Notes: generated by a model from the sequence alone, not told the origin. A DNA stretch of 64,000 nucleotides from a virus (IMGVR_UViG_3300039183_000005:96001-160000); one strand, 5' to 3'. Counted from the stretch's first letter, positions 33,016-48,349 are shown. Translations and numbers: made by a program.

Positions 33016-33353
33016 TATTGTTTCCTTAATTGTTCTTCTATAAATTGTTCTATTTTTGATTGTTGATCTGGCCACTCTGGATAATCTAATAAAAATCTAT
33101 TACATTTTACGCACCTACATTCAAACGGTGATAGCCAGTTATCAAATTGCTGCCAAACTTCATGCCAATTTATAATTACACCACGCTCATACAATAATGC
33201 TTCTATTTTCTTTTGTTGTAATTCCCATGGAGGATCATATAGGAGTTTTTCCTGTCCACATGATTTGCAAGTAGGTGGACTTTTAGTTATATTATAAGAC
33301 CAATCTTCAAATTCTTCCCAGAGTCTTTTCCAGTTTATTTTTTGTTTATCCAT
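33015..33353 (-). CDS. Hypothetical protein made of two tandem W/CxxC repeats
   Basis: INW..W..F..W...CxxC...W..QQ.KIE twice. Confidence 0.65.
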   Translation of the reverse strand: MDKQKINWKRLWEEFEDWSYNITKSPPTCKSCGQEKLLYDPPWELQQKKIEALLYERGVIINWHEVWQQFDNWLSPFECRCVKCNRFLLDYPEWPDQQSKIEQFIEEQLRKQ

Positions 33354-33559
33354 TATCTTCCTCCAAGTTGACGATTTCTTGTTTCAATGGTCCTTCTTTG
33401 TCGATATTCCGGTTTATCTCTTTGTAACGTTTGTTCACCAAGAGCATGTTCTACTTCGGATATAAAATGGGCACATTCTGTCCCCTGAAATCCTTCTCCA
33501 TCTATAGAACAATTTCCATTAGCGTCTATGTCTATTACGATTTGTTTTTGCCCTCGCAT
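33353..33559 (-). CDS. DUF2997-family protein
   Basis: I.I.ID..G...I...GF.G..C......E.ALG......KPEY. Confidence 0.75.
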   Translation of the reverse strand: MRGQKQIVIDIDANGNCSIDGEGFQGTECAHFISEVEHALGEQTLQRDKPEYRQRRTIETRNRQLGGR

Positions 33560-33882
33560 TATTTCTTCTCCGCTTCATACATCAGTTCTTCGAAGTATGC
33601 ATTACTTTCTGATTCAGTTAGGCGACTTCTTAGTTTTTTCTTTCGTTTTTCGGCTAGCGCTAAAGCATCGCTTGCATCACACAAACAATCAATTGCCGAT
33701 TTAAAACGACCTAAGTCTGTTTGTATTTGTTCTATAGTCATTATACGCCTAGGGCTCTTTCTAGTTATAATTTCTGTTTCTGTGTAAATTGAAATACTGA
33801 CATCTGATTCTCCCATAATTTCTTCTAGCTCGCACAATCCATTAGTACGTATATAAGAATCATCTTTTAGTCTAATTTTCAT
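33559..33882 (-). CDS. Hypothetical protein
   Basis: Coupled ORF. Confidence 0.5.
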   Translation of the reverse strand: MKIRLKDDSYIRTNGLCELEEIMGESDVSISIYTETEIITRKSPRRIMTIEQIQTDLGRFKSAIDCLCDASDALALAEKRKKKLRSRLTESESNAYFEELMYEAEKK

Positions 33883-34123
33883 AATATTGGTTTCCTGGAG
33901 AAAATTTTTCTATTTCCCATTCTATCGCATTCTCTCTGTTTTTGTTCGTATACAATACTTTCCCGTCAAGTGATGTAACTTGCCATTTTTGCAATTTCTC
34001 GCAGAACTCCACGTTGGATGCCTTGCGCACATTTTGAACGCGCCCGATGGCAAACAGGTCGATTTTGTCAGTGTATAATCCATGAACATTTCCTTTATCA
34101 CAAATTTCTAGAACTATTTTCAT
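33872..34123 (-). CDS. Conserved small protein (LY...IDL..IG...RKASNVE...W family)
   Basis: Motif recalled from partners of DUF1257/DUF2997/AAA clusters; not verified by search. Confidence 0.6.
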   Translation of the reverse strand: MKIVLEICDKGNVHGLYTDKIDLFAIGRVQNVRKASNVEFCEKLQKWQVTSLDGKVLYTNKNRENAIEWEIEKFSPGNQYYEN

Positions 34124-35755: not shown

Positions 35756-36187
35756 CTATTTACTAAGCATTTCTATACATTCTGTACAAGTTGGTTGACG
35801 GAACTCAAGGCCCAACGGTAACGTTATCCAATGGTTACATTTAGTTTTTACATGATCTCTATATCTAATTGATTTGCCAGCACACGCACACCAACCATCG
35901 TTGTGTTGTACACAGGCGATACATTCTGATATTTTTTGTTTATTAAGAAAGATGTTATGTAAAGATTTGGCAGATTCTAACGCTGCTGACAAATCGTTAA
36001 ATATTTTTTTATCCAATGAATTAATGACATCTTCTCTTCCACAGATTTCCCAACCAAAGTCAGTCTTACGGATAAAAGTACCAAGTCCGTCATGTATATG
36101 AATAGACCTATTTTGTTCTAGTAATTCAATAAGCCAATTTGGATCATGTTGTATTACTGATTTTTTATTTAATTTTGATTTATTCAT
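35756..36187 (-). CDS. Hypothetical protein
   Basis: Packed ORF with C-terminal Cys cluster. Confidence 0.5.
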   Translation of the reverse strand: MNKSKLNKKSVIQHDPNWLIELLEQNRSIHIHDGLGTFIRKTDFGWEICGREDVINSLDKKIFNDLSAALESAKSLHNIFLNKQKISECIACVQHNDGWCACAGKSIRYRDHVKTKCNHWITLPLGLEFRQPTCTECIEMLSK

Positions 36188-36704
36188 TGTGCTGAATTTC
36201 CTTTGTCAATAGTACTCTGACTTTATTTAATTCATCTTCAGTGTGAATAGTGCCGCCGGAATTGATATCCAAATACCATTGAAGTACTTCTCTACGAGTT
36301 TTTAGATTGTTTACATGAAAACACAAATGGACATCAAACGGTTTGTCTACAAAATCAGAAATATATAGTCCACGAAAAACTGGAACTTTACCAGCCATAA
36401 AATCCAAACAAGCAGTGAGACGTTGTTTTCCAACTACAAGTTCAAATGGTCCGTCGTATGAACCTTGCCATCCTGGGCAATTAAAGTAAAAATCTTTAGA
36501 TGAATTTCCACCACTTAGAATAAATTCAATATAACGAGATTGTTGCTTTGGAGTCCATACATGGATTCTTTGAAAATCTGGCTCTAAATTCAGTGGACAT
36601 AAGTGTTCTTCTTGATACTTTTTTATGGTTGATGGTAACGTATGAAGAAAGTGATGAACCGAATATACCGGTTGACTTATTTGTGGAATATCAGCAAATT
36701 TCAT
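36180..36704 (-). CDS. DUF262 (ParB/GmrSD N-terminal-like) protein
   Basis: PDFQR..VWT..QQ..YIE, VVGKQRLTA (DGxQR variant), IN.GGT. Confidence 0.75.
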   Translation of the reverse strand: MKFADIPQISQPVYSVHHFLHTLPSTIKKYQEEHLCPLNLEPDFQRIHVWTPKQQSRYIEFILSGGNSSKDFYFNCPGWQGSYDGPFELVVGKQRLTACLDFMAGKVPVFRGLYISDFVDKPFDVHLCFHVNNLKTRREVLQWYLDINSGGTIHTEDELNKVRVLLTKEIQHNE

Positions 36705-36713
36705 TGATATCTC

Positions 36714-37091
36714 CTATAATTCTATTCGTCTTACCAACGAATGCCTTCTTTTTTCTGTTGGTTTTGTTACTGGCTTTGGCTTCTTGATCCTGACCTGACT
36801 GATTTGTCCGTCACCATTGGATGCAGTCACAGCACCACACATAATAAAAAACTGAGATGGACTAATTAAATCGATACCCATAGAGCGTGCTTTTTCGGCT
36901 TTGATAGATTTACTGTTTGCATCAGCAATTACTAGAATGGTAGTTCTGCTTGTGACAGAATTGGTTACATCTGCGCCAGCGTTTAGTGCGATTGCTTGCA
37001 TTTCCGAACGCGGTTTTGGAGATTTACCGGTGAAACAGAAAACCGCTTCTTTCAAGCAACCTGTGTCTTCGTTGATAAATTTTAAAGCCAT
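36714..37091 (-). CDS. Stand-alone BRCT domain protein
   Basis: FCFTG...R.E.....GA.V..SV...T..LV....K..KA...GI..I...F. Confidence 0.8.
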   Translation of the reverse strand: MALKFINEDTGCLKEAVFCFTGKSPKPRSEMQAIALNAGADVTNSVTSRTTILVIADANSKSIKAEKARSMGIDLISPSQFFIMCGAVTASNGDGQISQVRIKKPKPVTKPTEKRRHSLVRRIEL

Positions 37092-37504
37092 TACCTATAT
37101 CCGGTTACAATCACTCTTTGGTGACCATTTGGGCAACGTTCCCTGGTAACACTCCGACCACGAGATTCTTGCTCTCTTCGAATTCTATGGTAGGCATAGT
37201 TTCCAGTTAGACTACCTATCCATTTTTTCCCATATCGCCCTGAATCGTATTCAGAAATTATTGCTTCGTATTTACCATCTTCTCGTTTTACAAAACCAAT
37301 ATCATTAGATGCGGAACCAACGTGTTTGCGCCTAATTATAATATGGGCCTTTTGTTCTCGTTGATCACCATGGTATCCGAATAGATGTTGAGGAACTTCG
37401 TGGATTTCTATTTGACCAGTAGTCCATTTCCCCGTTTCAACGAGTGCGTCAATAAGTGAGTCTTGATCTTTGAATTCGGTTTGTACTTCACAATATCTGC
37501 TCAT
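37091..37504 (-). CDS. DUF1257 (Ycf35-like) protein
   Basis: MS.Y....T...D...L..AL, L.GY.GD.R...A.I.I, DIGF....DG.Y.AII..YD, Y. Confidence 0.78.
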   Translation of the reverse strand: MSRYCEVQTEFKDQDSLIDALVETGKWTTGQIEIHEVPQHLFGYHGDQREQKAHIIIRRKHVGSASNDIGFVKREDGKYEAIISEYDSGRYGKKWIGSLTGNYAYHRIRREQESRGRSVTRERCPNGHQRVIVTGYR

Positions 37505-37508
37505 ACTT

Positions 37509-37697
37509 TTAATCCTTATCAAAATCTATTAGAAAGTCAAAAAATTCACCATTTTCAGAGATCATTTCTGCTCTACCACAGGGATGTAAACGATTGAATA
37601 ACTGGTCTGACAATGTTGCTATGACAAAGATTGCTTCTTTTTCTGTGAAAAAAAATCTAGTGGTTTCCGATATTCCTTTTCTATTCTCTACTTTCAT
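37509..37697 (-). CDS. Hypothetical protein
   Basis: Coupled ORF. Confidence 0.45.
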   Translation of the reverse strand: MKVENRKGISETTRFFFTEKEAIFVIATLSDQLFNRLHPCGRAEMISENGEFFDFLIDFDKD

Positions 37698-38539: not shown

Positions 38540-39550
38540 TTACAAAATAACTCGCCTTTTAAGTTCACCAATGAATCCACGACAATCCTGTCCTTCAGCA
38601 GCAGCTTTATTGCGAATTGCTTCAAGAGATTTACTGATACTATCTTTTACGGTAGCGGATTCAAAGTCTTTTGGTGTGACACCAGAATCCAAAAATGTAT
38701 TTCGGAAGTCTACCAGCATTTTTTCAATTTCGCCGTCGCCGAAGATGTTCATAGACCTAAAGCGGTCTACATATTTCCGGAAGCACGAGATTGATTTCGG
38801 AGTTAGTTTCTTTGCATCGCTTTCATCTCCATATGGTTTACCGCTTATGCGTGCCGTCATAAGTTTACAAAATCGAATAGTTTCGTTACGCATAGAAGTC
38901 ACGTACTCGCTTACGAAGTTGCCCACTTCGGTTTGCATTTGACGACGCAGCTCATTCTCTTTCTCGTCTTGCACTTTTTGTCGAGCAATTACTTCTTCAA
39001 CACTGGTTTCTTCTATCGATCCTATACCAGCAATTTTAAACGTAAACCAATCGAATTGAAATTTTGCCCGCAGGGCTTGTGGATTTGCCGGATAATGACC
39101 CCTTAGACACTTGTTCCAAAAATCTGGATGTGTTTCTCTTACTGTACGAACAAGATCATCGAAACGAGAAATGAAACTATCTACTCGTTCAAAAAATTCT
39201 TCTTTTAAATCTTTAATTTGTTGTTCCACTGTTGGGAGCATTTTTGCTGGAACAAAATGGGAGCTACTGATACCGAATGGCACAGACCACCTTTCCAGTG
39301 CTTTTCGAGCACGCTGTTCGATTTGGGTTAAATGTTGTAATTCAGATTTTGGCACCATTAATTTGCGACCAAGATTGCATATTTCTTCTGGAAGTTTGTC
39401 TGGGTCGTATCCTATCTTTACTAAATCTGCGCGAGTAATCATTTTTCGCGCGCTCCACATACGAACTCTAAGGTTCACCAGTAATCCAACATCAAATAAG
39501 TTTATGGCATCTTGCTTTGTGTCTTTGTTTTCGGTTACAATTGTACTCAT
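38540..39550 (-). CDS. DUF3150-like protein
   Basis: W..RK...LG.K....R..L...SVPF...FVP...Y P...KF.F pattern; adjacent to the AAA ATPase. Confidence 0.6.
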   Translation of the reverse strand: MSTIVTENKDTKQDAINLFDVGLLVNLRVRMWSARKMITRADLVKIGYDPDKLPEEICNLGRKLMVPKSELQHLTQIEQRARKALERWSVPFGISSSHFVPAKMLPTVEQQIKDLKEEFFERVDSFISRFDDLVRTVRETHPDFWNKCLRGHYPANPQALRAKFQFDWFTFKIAGIGSIEETSVEEVIARQKVQDEKENELRRQMQTEVGNFVSEYVTSMRNETIRFCKLMTARISGKPYGDESDAKKLTPKSISCFRKYVDRFRSMNIFGDGEIEKMLVDFRNTFLDSGVTPKDFESATVKDSISKSLEAIRNKAAAEGQDCRGFIGELKRRVIL

Positions 39551-39567: not shown

Positions 39568-41127
39568 TTAATTTAAACTGATTTTTCTTTCACCAATTTT
39601 TGGCGGTGCAGTTTTTGGTGGTGGATTGGCAGGCTTAGCGTGATTAGCGCACCATTGTCTAATGTTTGCTACGCGACTAGCTTCTGTTTTTGATAAAGGT
39701 ATAATTTCCGGAACAGCTTGTTTTAAGTGATAGGTTTTAAGTTGTTCCTTTTTCGAAAACGCCATTTTTAGACCAAGCTTAACAACTTGCTCAATATCGG
39801 CGCCAGTAAAGCCATCGGTTGATTTTGCCAACATATTAATGTCGAAATCATTTGGATCACGATTTCTTTTAATTAAATGTATAGTGAATATTTCTATACG
39901 CTCTTTTTCTGCTGGAAGATCAAGGCCATATATTTCGTCGAATCGGCCTTTTCTGGAAAGTTCTGGAGGAAGTGATTGAATTTGGTTTGCAGTAGCGATT
40001 ATGTATACCGAGGACTGTCTATCGTTTAACCATTTTATAAATGATCCGAATAATCTGCGAGATGCCCCGCCATCAAAGTCGCCAGAGCCACCGAAACCTT
40101 TTTCTATTTCGTCTAAAACCAATTCGCATGGAGATACGCTTTCTATCATTTTAATAGCCTCTCGCATATTTCGTTCCGATTCTCCAACGAACTTGTTCAT
40201 AAGATTGCCGACATCCATTGCAATAATTGGCAACCCTAGTTCAGATGCAATAGCGGAAGATAATAGAGTTTTTCCGCATCCCTGCAATCCGACAAGCATA
40301 AGACCCCGTGGGAATTCAATGCCGAAATCCCTAGCTTCTTTTGAAAAACATGGACGATCTAACAAAACATGCTGTTTAATTGCGTCATAACCACCAACCA
40401 AAGATAGTCCGCCACTGGGCGGTTCAATATAGGTTAATAACCCAGATGCCCGAATTACTCCAGCCTTTTCACGAATAATAGTTTTGATTGCATCACCATT
40501 TAAGTCTTTATGTTTTCTTAATGCCAATGCTACTCTATCGACAATTTGTTGAGAGGTCATACCCCTACATGCGTCTACAATTTTTGGGATAATGGTTTTG
40601 CTTGGTTCAAATTTAGTTCCATCAGATTTTGTTACTTCGCTACATACAAAATCGATTCGTTCATTAATTTGTTCATTATTTGGTAATGCGAAATCCATTT
40701 GAGTTATGTCGTGAGATAGTGATTTCGGGATATCAAAATTAGGTCCGACCATAACTATTGTTTGTTGCACAGAAGCTACAATTTTTCGAAGTTCGTCTAG
40801 CCAGCCAATTACTACGTCGTATCGTGGATATGTTACGTGTTGAAAATATTCACCACAATCACGTAGGATGCAGATTGTTTTTTCTGGAAAATCTACTATG
40901 GCTTGTATATGATCTTCTACCGGGGCGGCTGGTACTACTTCGCAAACTTTGTTGCCATTTTCGTCGATCCATCCCTGCGCAATAGACCAAATATATACTT
41001 TACGATCTATCTTTTTCGCTACTTTCGCAATTTCGCTGATGGCACGATCTTTTTCGAAAGTGTCGACATGTAACAAGGCATGACCAGAACAACAGTAATC
41101 GGCAAAATCCTCACCAAAATTATTCAT
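39568..41127 (-). CDS. Ycf46-like AAA+ ATPase (degenerate N-terminal AAA + active C-terminal AAA)
   Basis: T.E..R, W....G, LP...I, G.QGCGKT, GESE.NMR, LDEIEK, ATAN...LPPE..RKGRFDE, GFTGADIEQ, PLS...R.W. Confidence 0.88.
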   Translation of the reverse strand: MNNFGEDFADYCCSGHALLHVDTFEKDRAISEIAKVAKKIDRKVYIWSIAQGWIDENGNKVCEVVPAAPVEDHIQAIVDFPEKTICILRDCGEYFQHVTYPRYDVVIGWLDELRKIVASVQQTIVMVGPNFDIPKSLSHDITQMDFALPNNEQINERIDFVCSEVTKSDGTKFEPSKTIIPKIVDACRGMTSQQIVDRVALALRKHKDLNGDAIKTIIREKAGVIRASGLLTYIEPPSGGLSLVGGYDAIKQHVLLDRPCFSKEARDFGIEFPRGLMLVGLQGCGKTLLSSAIASELGLPIIAMDVGNLMNKFVGESERNMREAIKMIESVSPCELVLDEIEKGFGGSGDFDGGASRRLFGSFIKWLNDRQSSVYIIATANQIQSLPPELSRKGRFDEIYGLDLPAEKERIEIFTIHLIKRNRDPNDFDINMLAKSTDGFTGADIEQVVKLGLKMAFSKKEQLKTYHLKQAVPEIIPLSKTEASRVANIRQWCANHAKPANPPPKTAPPKIGERKISLN

Positions 41128-42479: not shown

Positions 42480-43241
42480 TTATTTTCCTTGTTTTTTATC
42501 TCGTTCCATACATGAAAAACAGTCCATTCCTAAATCCAGTTGTTCTGCCCTCCATTTCCAGACGTGTTTTCTTGCGTCGTAGTAGTCAATTTCGCCGAAG
42601 TGTTTCCACGGGAAATATCCCATAGGGCACAATGTTATCATACCTGTTTCTATTACCATCAATTGCCCTGTTTCTTTGCAACACCCACAGCAAACTTCGA
42701 ATTCACGACTTGATAGGTGATTATCCCATGCTCTTCCAAGCGGCAATAGCTTATTATCTGGAATATTTACTCCATAAATCAATTTAGCTTTTGGACTGTG
42801 TTCGCGATATAGTCGTTGTGCTCGTTTGCTGAATTTCTGGTGCCATTTATCATCGGATATTGCCACAAGAACTTCGTCGCAGATTTCACAAACAGAATCT
42901 ATTGATAATAGGAACTTATTCGTAGCCATTTTGTCGTAGGCCCATTGACCGTTTGTAACTATAGATGCTTTATGTCTACCAGATGTCAGAGCTATGAGAA
43001 TTTCTGGATAGTCTGGAAGTATCGTGAACTCTCCACCCATTATGTTTATTCTTATGTTTTTCGGCAACCATGTGTTTAATAATTCGCAGTCTCGGATAGA
43101 TAACTGACCTATACATTCAGGGCCAGACCTGAAACAACAATGAGAACACCGTTCGTTACACTGGTTTGTCACCCTAGCCACAAATTCATTGGTCCATGAA
43201 TTATTGCTCCACTTACTAAACCAGTGATTATACTTTGGCAT
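42480..43241 (-). CDS. Radical SAM protein with SPASM/twitch-like C-terminus
   Basis: CNERCSHC, MGGE, TNG, S.D.WH, GRA, C...G...CP. Confidence 0.88.
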   Translation of the reverse strand: MPKYNHWFSKWSNNSWTNEFVARVTNQCNERCSHCCFRSGPECIGQLSIRDCELLNTWLPKNIRINIMGGEFTILPDYPEILIALTSGRHKASIVTNGQWAYDKMATNKFLLSIDSVCEICDEVLVAISDDKWHQKFSKRAQRLYREHSPKAKLIYGVNIPDNKLLPLGRAWDNHLSSREFEVCCGCCKETGQLMVIETGMITLCPMGYFPWKHFGEIDYYDARKHVWKWRAEQLDLGMDCFSCMERDKKQGK

Positions 43242-44010
43242 GAATTTTTTCTCTCGACAACCTGATAGATTGATCATGCTCCATGCATGAGCAGCAAGTC
43301 ATCCCTCTTGTAAGTTGTTCTGATCGCCAATTTAATACATATTCCTTAGCTTCATACCATGAAGTCTCTGTGAAATGTTTCCACGGAAAATAACCAAACG
43401 GACACTTACACACCATTCCGTCTTCTGATATGAACATATTACCCATTGTGTTACATCTTGCCCATTTTTGTGGATCGGGGACAATATTATTATCCCACGC
43501 TCTTCCAACCGGAACAATCTCCGATACAGGAAGATTACCAGGATCAACTAATGTGACTTTTGGACAATTATTCTGCATAATTTCAAATGCTTTTGGCCAC
43601 GTATGTTTGTGCCATTTGTCCGTTGATATAGCGACATCAACTTCTTTACATATTTCTGTAAGAGAGTTAATGGTTTTTATGAAATTTTTTCTGATTGTGA
43701 ATATGCGAAACCATTGTCCATTTGTAACAATGCGGATATGATTTCTGTTTTTTGCCAGTACGTAAAGAATTTCTGGATAATTATGCAATATAGTTATTTC
43801 ACCACCCATTATATTCGGACTAACATCATGCGGTATCTATCTATTAATATCGATACAATCATTAGTAGATATGTGGCCAACACATTTTGGGCCAGACCGG
43901 AAAGCACAGTGAATACACTTTTGATTGCATCTGTTTGTAACTCTTACTACACAGGCATTTATTGTTGTATTTGTTGTCCATATTTTTGGATATTTTTTAT
44001 TGCTACTCAT
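43228..44010 (-). pseudogene. Radical SAM paralog with an in-frame TAG (43837-43839) at a position that is Trp in its neighbour
   Basis: Manual translation from ATG 44010: ...VRVTNRCNQKCIHCAFRSGPKCVG...INR*IPHDVSPNIMGGE; paralog reads LNTWLP. Confidence 0.8.
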
Positions 44011-44570: not shown

Positions 44571-45224
44571 TCATTTGGTCCCCATTTCATTGGTCAGCAA
44601 ATTTACATCGATTTCTTTATCTATTTCGCATCCACGAAGCCACTTGGCGAATTGTGCTACTCTTATGCCAGCCGATACGTTTGCGCAATAAATTGTTGTT
44701 TTTGCAGTACATGACCCAGAATAAGTTTCTCTCTGTGGGAATAGCGTTGTGTTATAGTGCTCTTTAGATTCTTCGTCGTGTGCGACGAAGATTCTCATAT
44801 ATTCTGCACTCATTCTTCCATCGATAAATAAGTCAGCTCGATTTTTGACTGCGTTAAAAATAGATTTTCGTGTTTCAATACTGTCTACACAACAAAATAA
44901 CACACCTCCGGTAAACTGGATTGACATGAATTTTTTATTTGCAGTGTTTATTTCTATCGCCGGATTAATCATGCGACAAACATCTGCCGTTGCGTCAACT
45001 TTAGCACGACCCAAATCTGCTTCGAAATATCCTTGTGCTGCCAGATTTTCTACTTTTACTATATCAAAATCAATTAATTGAATTTTGGGCACACCAATTG
45101 CCGCTAGTTGCAGTGCAACCTGACGGCCACCAGCGCCAACTCCCACCACAGTCACTTTTGTGTCTTGCAATTTTTCTGGTGGAATTAGTTCTCTCTGACG
45201 GATGTCTCTATTTTCAATATTCAC
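44571..45224 (-). CDS. ThiF/E1-like ubiquitin-like-protein activating enzyme
   Basis: R..RQ, VGVGAGG, LIDFD.V..ENL..Q, G..KV, CVDS...R, DGRM, candidate catalytic Cys in GSCTAK. Confidence 0.92.
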   Translation of the reverse strand: MNIENRDIRQRELIPPEKLQDTKVTVVGVGAGGRQVALQLAAIGVPKIQLIDFDIVKVENLAAQGYFEADLGRAKVDATADVCRMINPAIEINTANKKFMSIQFTGGVLFCCVDSIETRKSIFNAVKNRADLFIDGRMSAEYMRIFVAHDEESKEHYNTTLFPQRETYSGSCTAKTTIYCANVSAGIRVAQFAKWLRGCEIDKEIDVNLLTNEMGTK

Positions 45225-45256
45225 GCTTATTCCTCCATCATTGCCAAATCGCGTTC

Positions 45257-46144
45257 TTATAGATTTTCTTCAGCCCAAGCAACCACCATATTCGACCATT
45301 TTTGGATTGGTTTGTTTATCGCAACAATATCATTTCGATTTTCACCAAAAGCATCTTCAGAAAACCATCTTTTTTCTATTGGATCATAAAAATACCACAA
45401 GGCATCATTATATTCAAAAAATGCAGCATAGCCGTTATCATCCCAATGGCAATCAAAGTCTAATTCTTCCACCCGATTAAGTTCATCCTGTTGCCGAGCC
45501 AACTGTTCGTACTTTTTATTCCACCATAGCGGGTCATCATCAGGTTTGTCGTCTTGTACCAGACAGGAACGAGTAATTCCACCTTCTTTTCCTGTCATGC
45601 AGAATTTCTCAATCTGTACTTTATCTTTATATTCATTATTCCAGGCTTCAATGTTTGAACCATTAAATGGAACATTCCAATCTACTGCAATTTTTAGTTC
45701 TTTTACCACTCCCGGTCCAACGTTAATCTTCAATCTACAGTAGATTTCTCCACCTCTTGCAATGATGAACATTATGGCCCAATATGGATGGGAAAACGCT
45801 TTTCGGAAATTTTCTTCATCGGTTCCGCTAGGTTGAGGACAATTTCCTGGATGGGAATGTAGTAAAATATTTTGACATGTCCAGGGCGGCATTCCAATAT
45901 CCATCATTCGTTCTGCGTAATCCGCCATATCTTCTGAGTCAAAATCGAATGAAGCTCCAGTACATTTTTGTTTTATCAAAATGAAATCTGTAACTAAAAG
46001 TGGGTCTTCAGTTCCGGTTACTCCATAACCAGCTACTTCAGTTGGCCCTTTATCTCTCATATAAATTAATTTTGCAAAACTGTATGGAGTAAATCGCAAT
46101 GTATCTCCAAAAGTCATTTTTGGCGTCGTGAATTTTTTACTCAT
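45257..46144 (-). CDS. JAB/MPN (Mov34) metallopeptidase
   Basis: TEVAG (Glu) and HSHPGNCPQPSGTD = JAMM HxH-x7-S-x2-D; ATGA-coupled to the E2-like gene with AGGAG SD. Confidence 0.9.
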   Translation of the reverse strand: MSKKFTTPKMTFGDTLRFTPYSFAKLIYMRDKGPTEVAGYGVTGTEDPLLVTDFILIKQKCTGASFDFDSEDMADYAERMMDIGMPPWTCQNILLHSHPGNCPQPSGTDEENFRKAFSHPYWAIMFIIARGGEIYCRLKINVGPGVVKELKIAVDWNVPFNGSNIEAWNNEYKDKVQIEKFCMTGKEGGITRSCLVQDDKPDDDPLWWNKKYEQLARQQDELNRVEELDFDCHWDDNGYAAFFEYNDALWYFYDPIEKRWFSEDAFGENRNDIVAINKPIQKWSNMVVAWAEENL

Positions 46145-47391
46145 ACTCCTATTCCTTCTAATAGACAACCATGTTCTTCAAGACAGGATGAACACATTGG
46201 AACTCCACAGTGTTCACATGTTGTTTGACAATCTTCGCAAATACTCTTTTGACAACTATGACATTCATCAAGACACTCTTTGCAGCAATTCTCTTCACAA
46301 AGACCGCATGTAATCATACATTTTTCACATATAGGTTTATTGCAACAAGAACACGCCGATATACATGGATTGCAGAAATATTCCTGACAAATAGTGCATT
46401 GGCTTAGACACGACGAACAGTAATTTTTTTCGCATTCGGTACACATACTTGCACAGTTGTTGCAAAGTGCCTCTCCGCATTCATTACATTGTGTACCACA
46501 TTCACTACACATCCATTGGTCACACACACAACACGCATCACCATTTTCTGCACAATTTTCACAGTAGTTACAGTCACACATTGCACAATAGTACCCACAT
46601 TCATCTGGACACCATTCCCTACAATTTTCACAACAGAACTCCCCTTCGTGGTCTGGTTCATACCATTTTTCTAATTTGTCATACGGTGAATCATCATTAT
46701 ATGTTCGTAGAATAGATTCTACAACTCTAAAACAATCTTCGAGTCTACCCTGGCATATGGCATTTGTTATAGCTTCTTCTCCTTTCCCTTGACATAAAGA
46801 TTCATCTCCAATGTGTGGATGATAATATCCTCCTAATGATTGTATTTCATTTACTGACTCTATAGTTATGTTATACGGATTCGTTAGATCAATGTGTACC
46901 CAAAAGTGCCCAAGGTCTACTTCTTCATTTTCATCTTCGAGCACAACATCCTCGATAAGTACCGATAGTTTGTTGTCGCGAAATTTAACATTTTTCCAGG
47001 CGTTGCTAATTATTCTAATTTCTTCTGTTATTTCTTTTAGCGACAATGGTGTTACTAGACCTTTTTCTGTCATGATTTTAATTATTGCCATTGCTTGGCG
47101 TGTCATTTCTATAACACTATCTCCAATGTTTGGAATCATGGTTGTCGCAATATTTTCGTATACACTTGGATTTACAATTCCCAGATGTCGGACTGATGGT
47201 TCCCATTCATTAACTTGGACACGCGGACTTGTTCCAGCAATAAATCTATCGTACCATCGTTTTATTTCTTCCAATTTGATAGCAGCATTTGTTATTGCAT
47301 TACTTGCGCTCATATTGAGATTAACAGATTGTTGTTCCACCATCCATTTGTGATATTTGATAGCAGCTCTGCGTATTAGTTTTTCATTCAC
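46141..47391 (-). CDS. E2/UBC-like protein with C-terminal tandem CxxC array
   Basis: YHPHIGDESLCQG (cf. UBC HPN...IC) and SILRTYNDDSPY (cf. SLL.xPN..SP); about 20 CxxC pairs at the C-terminus. Confidence 0.72.
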   Translation of the reverse strand: MNEKLIRRAAIKYHKWMVEQQSVNLNMSASNAITNAAIKLEEIKRWYDRFIAGTSPRVQVNEWEPSVRHLGIVNPSVYENIATTMIPNIGDSVIEMTRQAMAIIKIMTEKGLVTPLSLKEITEEIRIISNAWKNVKFRDNKLSVLIEDVVLEDENEEVDLGHFWVHIDLTNPYNITIESVNEIQSLGGYYHPHIGDESLCQGKGEEAITNAICQGRLEDCFRVVESILRTYNDDSPYDKLEKWYEPDHEGEFCCENCREWCPDECGYYCAMCDCNYCENCAENGDACCVCDQWMCSECGTQCNECGEALCNNCASMCTECEKNYCSSCLSQCTICQEYFCNPCISACSCCNKPICEKCMITCGLCEENCCKECLDECHSCQKSICEDCQTTCEHCGVPMCSSCLEEHGCLLEGIGV

Positions 47392-47572
47392 AGTAAATTT
47401 TTCCTATATTTAAAACCGATTATTTTGCCAAATTAACAAATTTAGTATTCCGACTAAAATTCGACGAAAAATTTACCATTTGATTCTCGCCATATAATAC
47501 ACTTATTGTTTACGTCATATTCCTACGGTAAGGCTAACTAGCCTTACTTTTGGTCAAGTCAGGTGGATTGTT

Positions 47573-47767
47573 TTATTCATCTGATCTTGCTAGACATTCA
47601 GCCAGTCCTCCGACATAATCTTCTAGGTGAAGTAACACTTCACTATATCCAAATGCGTGACCTTTTTCCCAAGCCATATACGATAGCCAGCCACGAAATT
47701 TTTTGGGAATTCGATTTAGAAGTTCGGTTTGCTTGGCCTCGAACTCTTCTTCAGTTATTCTGCTCAT
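47573..47767 (-). CDS. Hypothetical protein
   Basis: AWEKGHAFGYSEV small phage protein. Confidence 0.55.
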   Translation of the reverse strand: MSRITEEEFEAKQTELLNRIPKKFRGWLSYMAWEKGHAFGYSEVLLHLEDYVGGLAECLARSDE

Positions 47768-47803
47768 TGTGTTTGCCTATAATTTGATACGTGATTATTA
47801 ACC

Positions 47804-47837
47804 AAAAGGGGGTGGGGGAACGTATCTCCCCCACCCC
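47804..47837 (-). terminator. Rho-independent terminator downstream of the Ubl gene
   Basis: Minus strand GGGGTGGGGGAGA-TACG-TTCCCCCACCCC-CTTTT. Confidence 0.8.
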
Positions 47838-47872
47838 GTGTGGTATTAATACCGATGACCTTACACCATCTA

Positions 47873-48349
47873 TTACGAACGCTTCGTCAGCTTACTCCGA
47901 ACCAACTCGGCATCTTCTTTACTAAGACCGCTAAGCAACTTGGAAACAGTCTTCGGAAGCTTATCCCTAGACATTTGTACTCTCTTTAATTTATATGCGA
48001 GAGTAAGTACATTTGGATCGGTATCGGCGGCAAGTCGCTCAGCGATAGTTACATTATCAGTGCTCATTTTGGTCCTCAGAGAAGCTATCTGCTCCTCATT
48101 TGTTCCTGGACCTTTACCCGCGTCGCCCTCGATCTTTTTCGGCGCCAGACTTACCCTGTCACCGTCTTGAAGGACATAATCCAGATGAGCTTCGACAGTC
48201 ATGCCATTTGCACGAACTCGGATTGTGAAATCATCCAAATCGCGACCGAAAGAAACCTCAAGAAATTTTTCCAACGTCGTTCCATTGACAACGGGAATCT
48301 TGCGCGGAATACCAGAACCGTCATTTGTTACCAACATTACCTCGATCAT
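47873..48349 (-). CDS. Ubiquitin-like (beta-grasp, MoaD/ThiS-like) protein, 75-aa domain ending KIEG plus an 83-aa C-terminal extension
   Basis: I.V.LV.N.G.G....IPV..GTTL..F...IRV...YVLQDGDRVSLAPKKIEG. Confidence 0.8.
   Translation of the reverse strand: MIEVMLVTNDGSGIPRKIPVVNGTTLEKFLEVSFGRDLDDFTIRVRANGMTVEAHLDYVLQDGDRVSLAPKKIEGDAGKGPGTNEEQIASLRTKMSTDNVTIAERLAADTDPNVLTLAYKLKRVQMSRDKLPKTVSKLLSGLSKEDAELVRSKLTKRS

Follow-up and report, generated by a model that had tools for sequence, protein, structure and literature searches.

Descriptions to date of ubiquitin-like protein (Ubl) conjugation in bacteria, as carried out by Bil, Bub and CBASS Cap2, present it as a form of host immunity to phages. 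The subject of this report is a four-gene cassette in the genome of an uncultured phage, which encodes a Ubl, an E2-like protein, a JAB peptidase and an E1 and is located at positions 44571-48349 of IMGVR_UViG_3300039183_000005:96001-160000. This stretch of 64,000 nucleotides (hereafter the window) comprises bases 96001-160000 of a single IMG/VR virus record of 168,332 bp with a CheckV completeness of 100, derived from a sediment metagenome. The four genes probably specify a phage-encoded Ubl conjugation cascade that is JAB-processed, E1-activated and E2-carried, with a cysteine-rich array of the E2 as specificity module. The cassette is the phage branch of a large, Planctomycetota-centred family and not an isolated case.

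Comparison with known systems

The closest described systems are the BilABCD (bacterial ISG15-like) operons of Types I and II (Millman 2022; Hor et al., 10.1101/2023.09.04.556158; Chambers et al., 10.1101/2023.09.26.559546). In Type II Bil, whose gene order is the same as that found here, the deubiquitinase (DUB) exposes the glycine of the Ubl by pre-processing, and the Ubl is conjugated by E1 and E2 (10.1101/2023.09.26.559546). Some BilA homologues carry overhangs of 2-9 residues (10.1101/2023.09.04.556158). BilD is a multidomain E1 with an inactive and an active adenylation domain and a mobile CYS domain, the catalytic residue being Cys417 (10.1101/2023.09.26.559546). The phage cassette resembles Bil in the order Ubl-E2-JAB(DUB)-E1, in the overhang of the Ubl after a conserved Gly, in the catalytic Cys of the E2 (a candidate residue here) and in the JAB-family DUB. 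It differs in its E1, a single-domain protein of 217 amino acids (aa) instead of the multidomain BilD, and in its E2, which belongs to another family, with some 110 additional helical residues at the N-terminus and a C-terminal array of 46 Cys. Bil is found in Rhizobiaceae/Proteobacteria, whereas the present cassette occurs in phages and Planctomycetota and is linked to genes for an AAA+ ATPase, a DUF3150 protein and a DUF2997 protein.

The PRTRC set, or operon 6D (Iyer, Burroughs and Aravind 2006, PMC1779556; NCBIfam TIGR03734-03741; Pfam Prok-E2_D), is likewise a mobile-element set with a small ThiF-type E1, a JAB protein, an E2-like protein and a small Ubl. However, the E1 described here scores 32 bits against TIGR03736 (cut-off 144.75), the E2 (Prok-E2_D and TIGR03737 included), JAB and Ubl proteins match no PRTRC or Prok-E2 model, and there is no ParB partner. 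The Caldiarchaeum subterraneum operon for E1, E2, a small-RING E3 and Rpn11 (PMC3082918, PMC5654768) shares with the cassette a Ubl, an E1, an E2 of the ubiquitin-conjugating (UBC) fold, a JAMM protein and a Cys-rich partner of the E2. There, the RING protein is separate and recognizable and the ubiquitin is eukaryote-like with a Gly-Gly end, whereas here the array is fused to the E2 and finds no clear match among RING, B-box and PHD models, and the ThiS/MoaD-like tag carries one Gly at its end.

Bub (6E) and Type II CBASS (Cap2/Cap3) are bacterial systems of E1/E2-type conjugation that also include a peptidase. BubB is one of the proteins that the E2 core matches in structure, and models of BubCD and Cap2 match the E1. 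The fused, E1-containing BubCD protein of Bub and the E1-E2 fusion without a free Ubl of CBASS have no counterpart in the cassette. With the ThiF/MoeB adenylyltransferases, the E1 has in common an adenylation domain with invariant GxGxxG, R, D and K, but an equivalog match was not obtained, and the partners thiG/thiS, moaE/moaD and rhodanese were not found among the scanned neighbours.

By its architecture, the cassette is not a member of Bil or Bub, and its E2 family is apparently uncatalogued, being unrecognized by current libraries. Neither a description of the cassette nor a report of a complete conjugation cascade as a stable part of large phage genomes was found in the searchable literature, which leaves out many subscription papers.

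Features of the cassette

The four genes and one small open reading frame (ORF) within the set are all present at the positions proposed in the initial annotation and are co-oriented on the minus strand, as are all other features of the window for which coordinates are given below. That annotation had a phage carrying the whole cascade, which agrees with the viral origin and completeness of the IMG/VR record and with the phage replication genes it encodes, namely a DnaE-type polymerase, a primase, a DnaB helicase, a UvsX-like recombinase and a ribonucleotide reductase. The window has a G+C content of about 0.36, and almost all of its genes lie on the minus strand.

The E2 gene (46141-47391) encodes a protein of 416 aa. 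The GTG start at 47391 is supported by the N-terminus MNEKLIRRAA, which is kept in all relatives. The protein consists of an N-terminal helical hairpin (residues 1-111, 47059..47391), with helices at 3-21, 26-54 and 75-108 in AlphaFold model m4d7e7544d164, a UBC-like core (residues 112-250, 46642..47058), recognized from model m8a73d424e779, hhalign and invariant residues, and the Cys-rich array (46165..46632). The HPH..LC and SILxxYNxxSPY motifs reported earlier are present as HPH191-193 (46813-46821), LC200 and SILRTYNDDSPY. H191, P192 and C200 are invariant over the phage and bacterial homologues, distant ones included, one distant member reading HPN; Cys200 (46792-46794) is the candidate catalytic residue.

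Fold searches with a model of the whole N-domain were of little use, with Foldseek giving only E>0.2 and VIA-align being swamped by the helical hairpin (residues 20-111); the core was therefore folded alone. The resulting model (residues 112-255, from an alignment of 13 sequences; pLDDT 76, pTM 0.74) shows a helix, a four-strand meander, a loop and two helices. When it was compared with 48,161 PDB representatives by VIA-align, the best 50 matches were all E2, UEV or RWD domains (Z 7.7-5.7, about 110 of the 144 residues aligned). Ubc8 ranked best (Z 7.7, 110 residues), and the matches also include UBE2S, UbcH5, Ubc9, Ubc13, Tsg101, GCN2-RWD and the bacterial BubB (Z 6.8). Foldseek placed UbcH7 first, with a probability of 0.89 but an E-value of only 0.05. 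ESM Atlas neighbours were UQ_con/RWD at a TM-score of 0.56-0.57, and UFC1 and E2-CBASS by features. A profile of the family was also compared by hhalign with an alignment of Pfam-positive UQ_con domains from Planctomycetota genomes. The two aligned with a probability of 85% (E 6e-6), with HPH paired to HPN, Cys200 to the catalytic Cys, the subsequent helices to each other and TYNxxSPY to YNVKSPL.

Structural Z-scores below 8 lie in a range that is not decisive alone, which counts against the assignment of the core; the assignment therefore rests on the uniform list of matches together with the aligned motif. Taken with the invariant residues, the model fold and the hhalign result identify the core as a diverged E2. 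The UBC-type fold of the protein and its unvarying Cys in the catalytic position favour conjugation to proteins over sulfur transfer, as had been proposed from the sequence. A thioester would be expected to form on Cys200, given the fold, the motif and the invariance of the residue.

The UQ_con proteins of Planctomycetota constitute a separate bacterial E2 family. Proteins above the Pfam UQ_con cut-off (FHPNI...C, YNVKSPLN; loci L138-L160) are encoded in 38 of 301 sampled Planctomycetota genomes and in none of 14 control genomes.

The tail of the E2 (residues 251-416, 166 residues) contains 46 Cys, arranged in about 20 CxxC knuckles with a period of 15 residues. Its autocorrelation peaks at 15 and 30 residues, and the spacing of the CxxC motifs alternates between 7 and 8. 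Homologues share the Cys columns without variation, and their arrays differ in length by whole repeat units. Searches against PDB profiles gave weak B-box, PHD and FYVE matches (E 8e-4 to 0.5) that are likely Cys-driven. No Pfam zinc-finger family was matched in 11 family members at E<=0.5; one distant E2 homologue matches zf-B_box at E 0.007.

The Ubl ORF (47873-48349) encodes 158 aa. Its Ubl domain (residues 1-75, 48125..48349) ends in KKIEG, and Gly75 is the predicted conjugation end, as judged from the match to ThiS, the fold model and the alignment of homologues. The match to Pfam ThiS is weak (E 0.017), and the ESM Atlas model of residues 1-76 reaches TM-scores of 0.7-0.8 to ThiS/MoaD/Ub-RnfH clusters; a sequence-profile search of the PDB yielded nothing usable. 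The initial annotation had the protein ending in KIEG, which does not hold, as another 83 residues come after Gly75 in the same ORF. This C-terminal extension (47873..48124) is fused in frame through a DAG linker, followed by KGPGTNEE..., and has no match in Pfam, PHROG or NCBIfam. A homologue of residues 79-156 of the ORF is a separate downstream gene in three related phage contigs, L003 (7581-7835), L004 (7352-7591) and L007 (7552-7899). From this comparison of sequences, the present phage carries its Ubl as a natural in-frame fusion precursor. In eukaryotes, ubiquitin-ribosomal protein fusions (UBA52, RPS27A) likewise join the tag to an unrelated C-terminal protein, from which it is freed by a peptidase after the terminal Gly. 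In contrast to these, the Ubl fusion described here occurs in one phage only, and three relatives encode the homologous part separately.

Gly75 is invariant in 95 of 95 Ubl homologues and is always followed by at least one residue. Bacterial copies have Ala and 0-30 variable residues after the Gly, and phage copies have 1-10 residues. As Gly75 is never the last residue, the tag would have to be trimmed.

A strong terminator-like hairpin (47809..47837; 12-bp stem, 9 GC pairs, T-rich tail), identified by consensus scan alone, lies directly 3' of the Ubl gene and, to judge from this match, may raise the amount of tag relative to that of the enzymes. The small ORF reported between the Ubl and E2 genes was found as well (47573-47767, 64 aa). 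It is 80% identical in L002, which is the closest relative and the sole one that keeps it, and the other relatives have different genes in its place; it is a variable, non-core gene.

The JAB gene (45257..46144) encodes a JAB/JAMM metallopeptidase whose C-terminal part of about 100 residues is phage-specific. The protein matches Pfam Prok-JAB at E 4e-5 with 23.9 bits, slightly under the cut-off of 25 bits, and also matches PADLOC JAB models. The full JAMM motif noted previously is present in the ORF as E44..H104-S-H106-x7-S114-x2-D117 (numbered from a TTG start at 46168) and is kept in 103 homologues. The coupling of JAB to E2 was read directly in the sequence, the ATG of the JAB gene overlapping the stop codon of the E2 gene as ATGA. 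The two genes abut or overlap in the window, in L005/L006, in L007 and in L008; in L002, L003 and L004 they are about 0.7-0.85 kb apart, the insert of L002 holding an ORF of 206 aa.

The E1 gene (44571..45224) encodes a minimal E1 of 217 aa with a single adenylation domain of the ThiF/MoeB type. Residues 17-202 match Pfam ThiF at E 1.4e-26 with 93.6 bits (cut-off 28.1), and profile matches in the PDB include the adenylation domains of UBA7, ThiF, MoeB, MccB, UBA5 and BubCD. The GxGAGG motif and the Cys in GSCTAK, both reported before, were recovered: the former reads GVGAGGRQ (GxGxxG at 45126-45143), and the latter is Cys172 (44709-44711), the candidate catalytic residue. The invariant residues among 29 aligned phage and bacterial homologues, all of equal length, are R9, G28, G30, G33, R34, D52, D54, K75, D114 and C172. 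By its sequence, the protein reads as a clear ThiF-family adenylyltransferase. A complex prediction with two copies of the E1 and the N-domain of the E2 gave a score of 0.00 and counts neither for nor against an interaction.

Part of these data would also fit a sulfur-carrier or other adenylation pathway, in which a thiocarboxylated Ubl would feed a thio-modification, perhaps together with radical SAM enzymes, and the "E2" would be a non-catalytic Cys-rich scaffold or a metal/sulfur donor. ThiS/MoaD is the only family signal of the Ubl, which has a single Gly end, the best NCBIfam matches of the E1 are ThiF and MoeB, the E2 tail is rich in Cys, and two tandem radical SAM paralogues (42480-44010), which weakly match YydG-type epimerase, viperin and SPASM maturases, follow the E1 gene immediately on its downstream side in this phage and in five of seven relatives. 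The radical SAM genes are, however, absent from the bacterial operons; they are therefore not core, and were set aside as a part of the system. The E1, for its part, is far under every NCBIfam equivalog cut-off (top score 77.6 bits, cut-off 159) and lacks a rhodanese domain. The initial annotation had stated that no thiamine or molybdopterin genes lie nearby; thiG, moaE and rhodanese were indeed not found among the scanned neighbours, and the statement holds to that extent, as not every ORF of the window was scanned. That HP[HN]...Cys is invariant, lies within a UBC fold and aligns with the catalytic sites of true E2s is difficult to account for unless the protein has a role in thioester formation, and a JAB peptidase with obligatory C-terminal tails on the tag is a hallmark of conjugation systems. 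A sulfur-carrier role is thus considered improbable.

Proposed pathway

From the identities of the proteins, their folds and invariant residues, the precursor tails and the co-conservation of the genes, we infer the following chemical steps and targets for the conjugation cascade. The tag, as the sequences show, is made as a precursor, in which the beta-grasp domain is fused at Gly75 to the 83-residue extension or, in relatives, to the 1-10 extra residues read from their sequences. The JAMM peptidase would cut after Gly75. This step is proposed by analogy, since a conserved Gly, a disposable tail and an adjacent JAMM peptidase make up the arrangement of Type II Bil, and the natural Ubl fusion would offer a ready substrate on which to assay the JAB peptidase. 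The minimal E1 would adenylate Gly75 and may hold the tag as a thioester on Cys172, from which the tag would be transferred to Cys200 of the UBC-fold E2. The Cys-rich array would give the E2 a substrate-recruiting or E3-like module of its own, and lysines of the target would receive the tag. JAB may remove the tag, too. Possible targets are proteins of the host, of the phage itself or of competing elements. Candidate roles, put forward in the initial annotation, are the tagging of host proteins or of rival phages and the countering of host defence.

Several observations weigh against such a cascade. The tag has just one Gly at its end and is similar to the sulfur carriers ThiS and MoaD. The E2 matches no Pfam E2 family (UQ_con, Prok-E2_A-E, E2-CBASS) at E<=0.1, no NCBIfam model at E<=0.001, no PHROG or PADLOC model and no PDB sequence at E<=10. 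The E1 lacks the ubiquitin-fold and CYS domains by which canonical E1s and BilD recruit and charge their E2, and the handover of the tag is thus unexplained. The array, a conjectured zinc-binding and E3-like or substrate-recruiting module, matches no known zinc-finger family in Pfam.

If the cassette is active, ubiquitin-style tagging would be used by phages and not just by hosts, a large E2 family (2428 cluster representatives) would come with its own candidate substrate-recognition array, and a 217-residue E1 would be able to serve an E2.

Distribution of the cassette

Close homologues of the E2 numbered just 11 in a word-indexed search. When 1.84 billion cluster representatives were searched with a profile, 2428 matched at E<=1e-3, of which 1120 reached E<=1e-10; most are about 350 aa in length, with the same core, a Cys array and no Pfam domain. 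In the ESM Atlas, two clusters (70 and 335 members) are dominated by viruses and another, of 2546 members, is bacterial. A 5-kb region (blastn) and the E2 (tblastn) had zero matches in 50,697 GenBank phage records, and no cultured phage with this E2 was found there; just distant ThiF genes (28%) and AAA genes in the GenBank phage collection match. A distant ThiF/E1-type gene (27-32% identical), mostly annotated as "thiamine biosynthesis protein", occurs in crAss-like Bacteroides phages and in Flavobacterium psychrophilum phages. Among sequencing runs, one DNA run is listed as containing the region, a sediment metagenome and probably its source; no RNA run is listed.

The order Ubl-E2-JAB-E1 is found in seven of seven related IMG/VR contigs (65-181 kb, two with terminal repeats). 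The proteins encoded there share 61-80% (E1), 60-80% (Ubl), 43-57% (JAB) and 34-48% (E2) identity with those of the window, and the four ORFs are intact in eight diverged phages. Among bacteria, a degenerate DNA pattern encoding HPHV-x4-LCEGDG, and hence biased to members with that motif, gave at least 120 genomic loci, nearly all in metagenome-assembled genomes of Planctomycetota. The complete set Ubl>E2>JAB>E1 is present in 62 Planctomycetota loci among the matches listed, and the partial bacterial loci fit truncation at the edge of the locus, save one exception. Co-conservation of the four genes, on which the initial annotation had staked its reading, is thus seen in both viral and bacterial loci, and the arrangement is far beyond chance.

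Within Planctomycetota the distribution is sporadic, with the cassette present in 5 of 200 further sampled genomes. One genome of 5.8 Mb has six copies, some of them just Ubl-E2 pairs. Bacterial cassettes are found near a large serine recombinase (L136), RHS toxins and surface proteins. In a tree of the E1, the bacterial copies ignore taxonomy, near-identical E1s occurring in different orders, and those of the phages group together (100/100 support) on one long branch. As far as these sequences indicate, the module behaves as a mobile accessory element, of which the phage lineage appears to have kept its own diverged version under selection.

Two Ubl-E2 pairs 12 kb apart, without a detectable JAB or E1 gene by crude gene calling, are found in one Gemmatales-type genome (G004:C1, about 31 kb and 43 kb; L130, L131). 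Their neighbours are giant proteins of the surface and RHS-repeat kinds (1781 and 1884 aa), and four more copies of the E2 family lie elsewhere in this genome.

Homologues being overwhelmingly located in Planctomycetota genomes, the cassette might be a passenger, recently captured from a host mobile element and neutral or decaying in the phage. The well-supported group of phage copies on its long branch speaks against this, as does the fact that the genes are intact, in the same order and with catalytic residues kept over eight phages at 34-80% protein identity, which indicates long-term purifying selection. Recent capture is accordingly judged highly improbable.

The same distribution bears on the role of the cascade. 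With the chemistry unchanged, it might serve in defence between viruses, as a Bil-like module, carried by the phage and by mobile elements of Planctomycetota, that tags and disables structural proteins of competing phages and so brings about superinfection exclusion. The gene order is identical to that of BilABCD, and Bil is anti-phage and tags a phage tail protein (10.1101/2023.09.04.556158; 10.1101/2023.09.26.559546). The sporadic, multi-copy, off-taxonomy occurrence of the bacterial cassette near serine recombinase and RHS genes has the traits of a defence or mobile island. However, the core proteins match no PADLOC model beyond generic Cap2-type E1 and Cap3-type JAB. The cassette is, moreover, stable and syntenic in phages of 160-181 kb beside replication and metabolic genes, which a core infection function fits at least equally well. 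Defence against other viruses is therefore regarded as rather unlikely.

Neighbouring genes

A classical-clade AAA+ ATPase (39568..41127; Cdc48/PAN/FtsH-like; Pfam AAA 2e-27 and AAA_lid_3) is a probable accessory of the conjugation cascade. Its best NCBIfam matches are CDC48 (6e-32) and PAN (3e-30), both under the cut-offs, with FtsH also among the best. In six related phages the gene has 58-76% identity and lies on the same strand, 2-8 kb downstream of E1. In bacteria it is found upstream of Ubl in eight loci among the matches listed, and also in L134-L136. The adjoining DUF3150 protein (38540..39550; Pfam 3e-22) is another probable accessory, with a homologue after the AAA gene in L124 and L134.

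A DUF2997 protein (33353..33559; Pfam 3.4e-7) has phmmer homologues just upstream of the AAA gene in L124, L089 and L136. The bacterial operons of L061, L134 and L135 encode weak homologues of an 83-aa protein (33872..34123) in the interval from DUF3150 to Ubl (phmmer E 1e-4 to 3e-5). Bacterial loci such as L089, L124, L134, L135 and L136 show the order DUF2997 > AAA > DUF3150-like > small protein(s) > Ubl > E2 > JAB > E1. A DUF1257 protein (37091..37522; Pfam 2.9e-11) is a possible accessory with weak linkage, a homologue not having been recovered in the bacterial loci.

The genetic linkage of the AAA+ ATPase to the cassette is real. Speculatively, this Cdc48/PAN-type ATPase, with its DUF3150 and DUF2997 partners, may act on tagged proteins, and the unfoldase would be a candidate reader of the tag. 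The cassette and its neighbours might then form a self-contained, eukaryote-like "tag and unfold" pathway. In it, the JAMM peptidase would release the fused tag, the minimal E1 would activate it, the E2 with its zinc array as E3 would place it, and the Cdc48/PAN-type unfoldase with DUF3150 and DUF2997 adaptors would read it, so as to remodel or destroy, in the course of infection, proteins of the host (probably Planctomycetota) or of rival phages. This extension of the conjugation cascade is tentative, being possible rather than probable. If true, ubiquitin-style tagging in prokaryotes would have been put to use by a virus, possibly as an independent prototype of the ubiquitin-segregase link.

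The second of the two radical SAM paralogues (43228-44010) has an in-frame TAG at codon 58 (about 43837-43839), a position occupied by Trp (TGG) in the first paralogue (42480-43277) and in the L004 and L007 orthologues. The TAG is shared by L002 (L002:12193-12195), the two proteins being about 45% identical, and the frame is otherwise open in both. Candidate explanations are a conserved read-through, a functional split and a shared nonsense mutation. A suppressor tRNA and genome-wide recoding of TAG were considered and neither was found; the tRNAs are Met, Leu-caa and Ile-tat.

Between the DUF1257 gene and an IMPDH/GMP-reductase-like gene lie the genes for a stand-alone BRCT-domain protein (36714-37091; Pfam E 6e-12) and a GmrSD_N (DUF262-type) protein (36180-36704).

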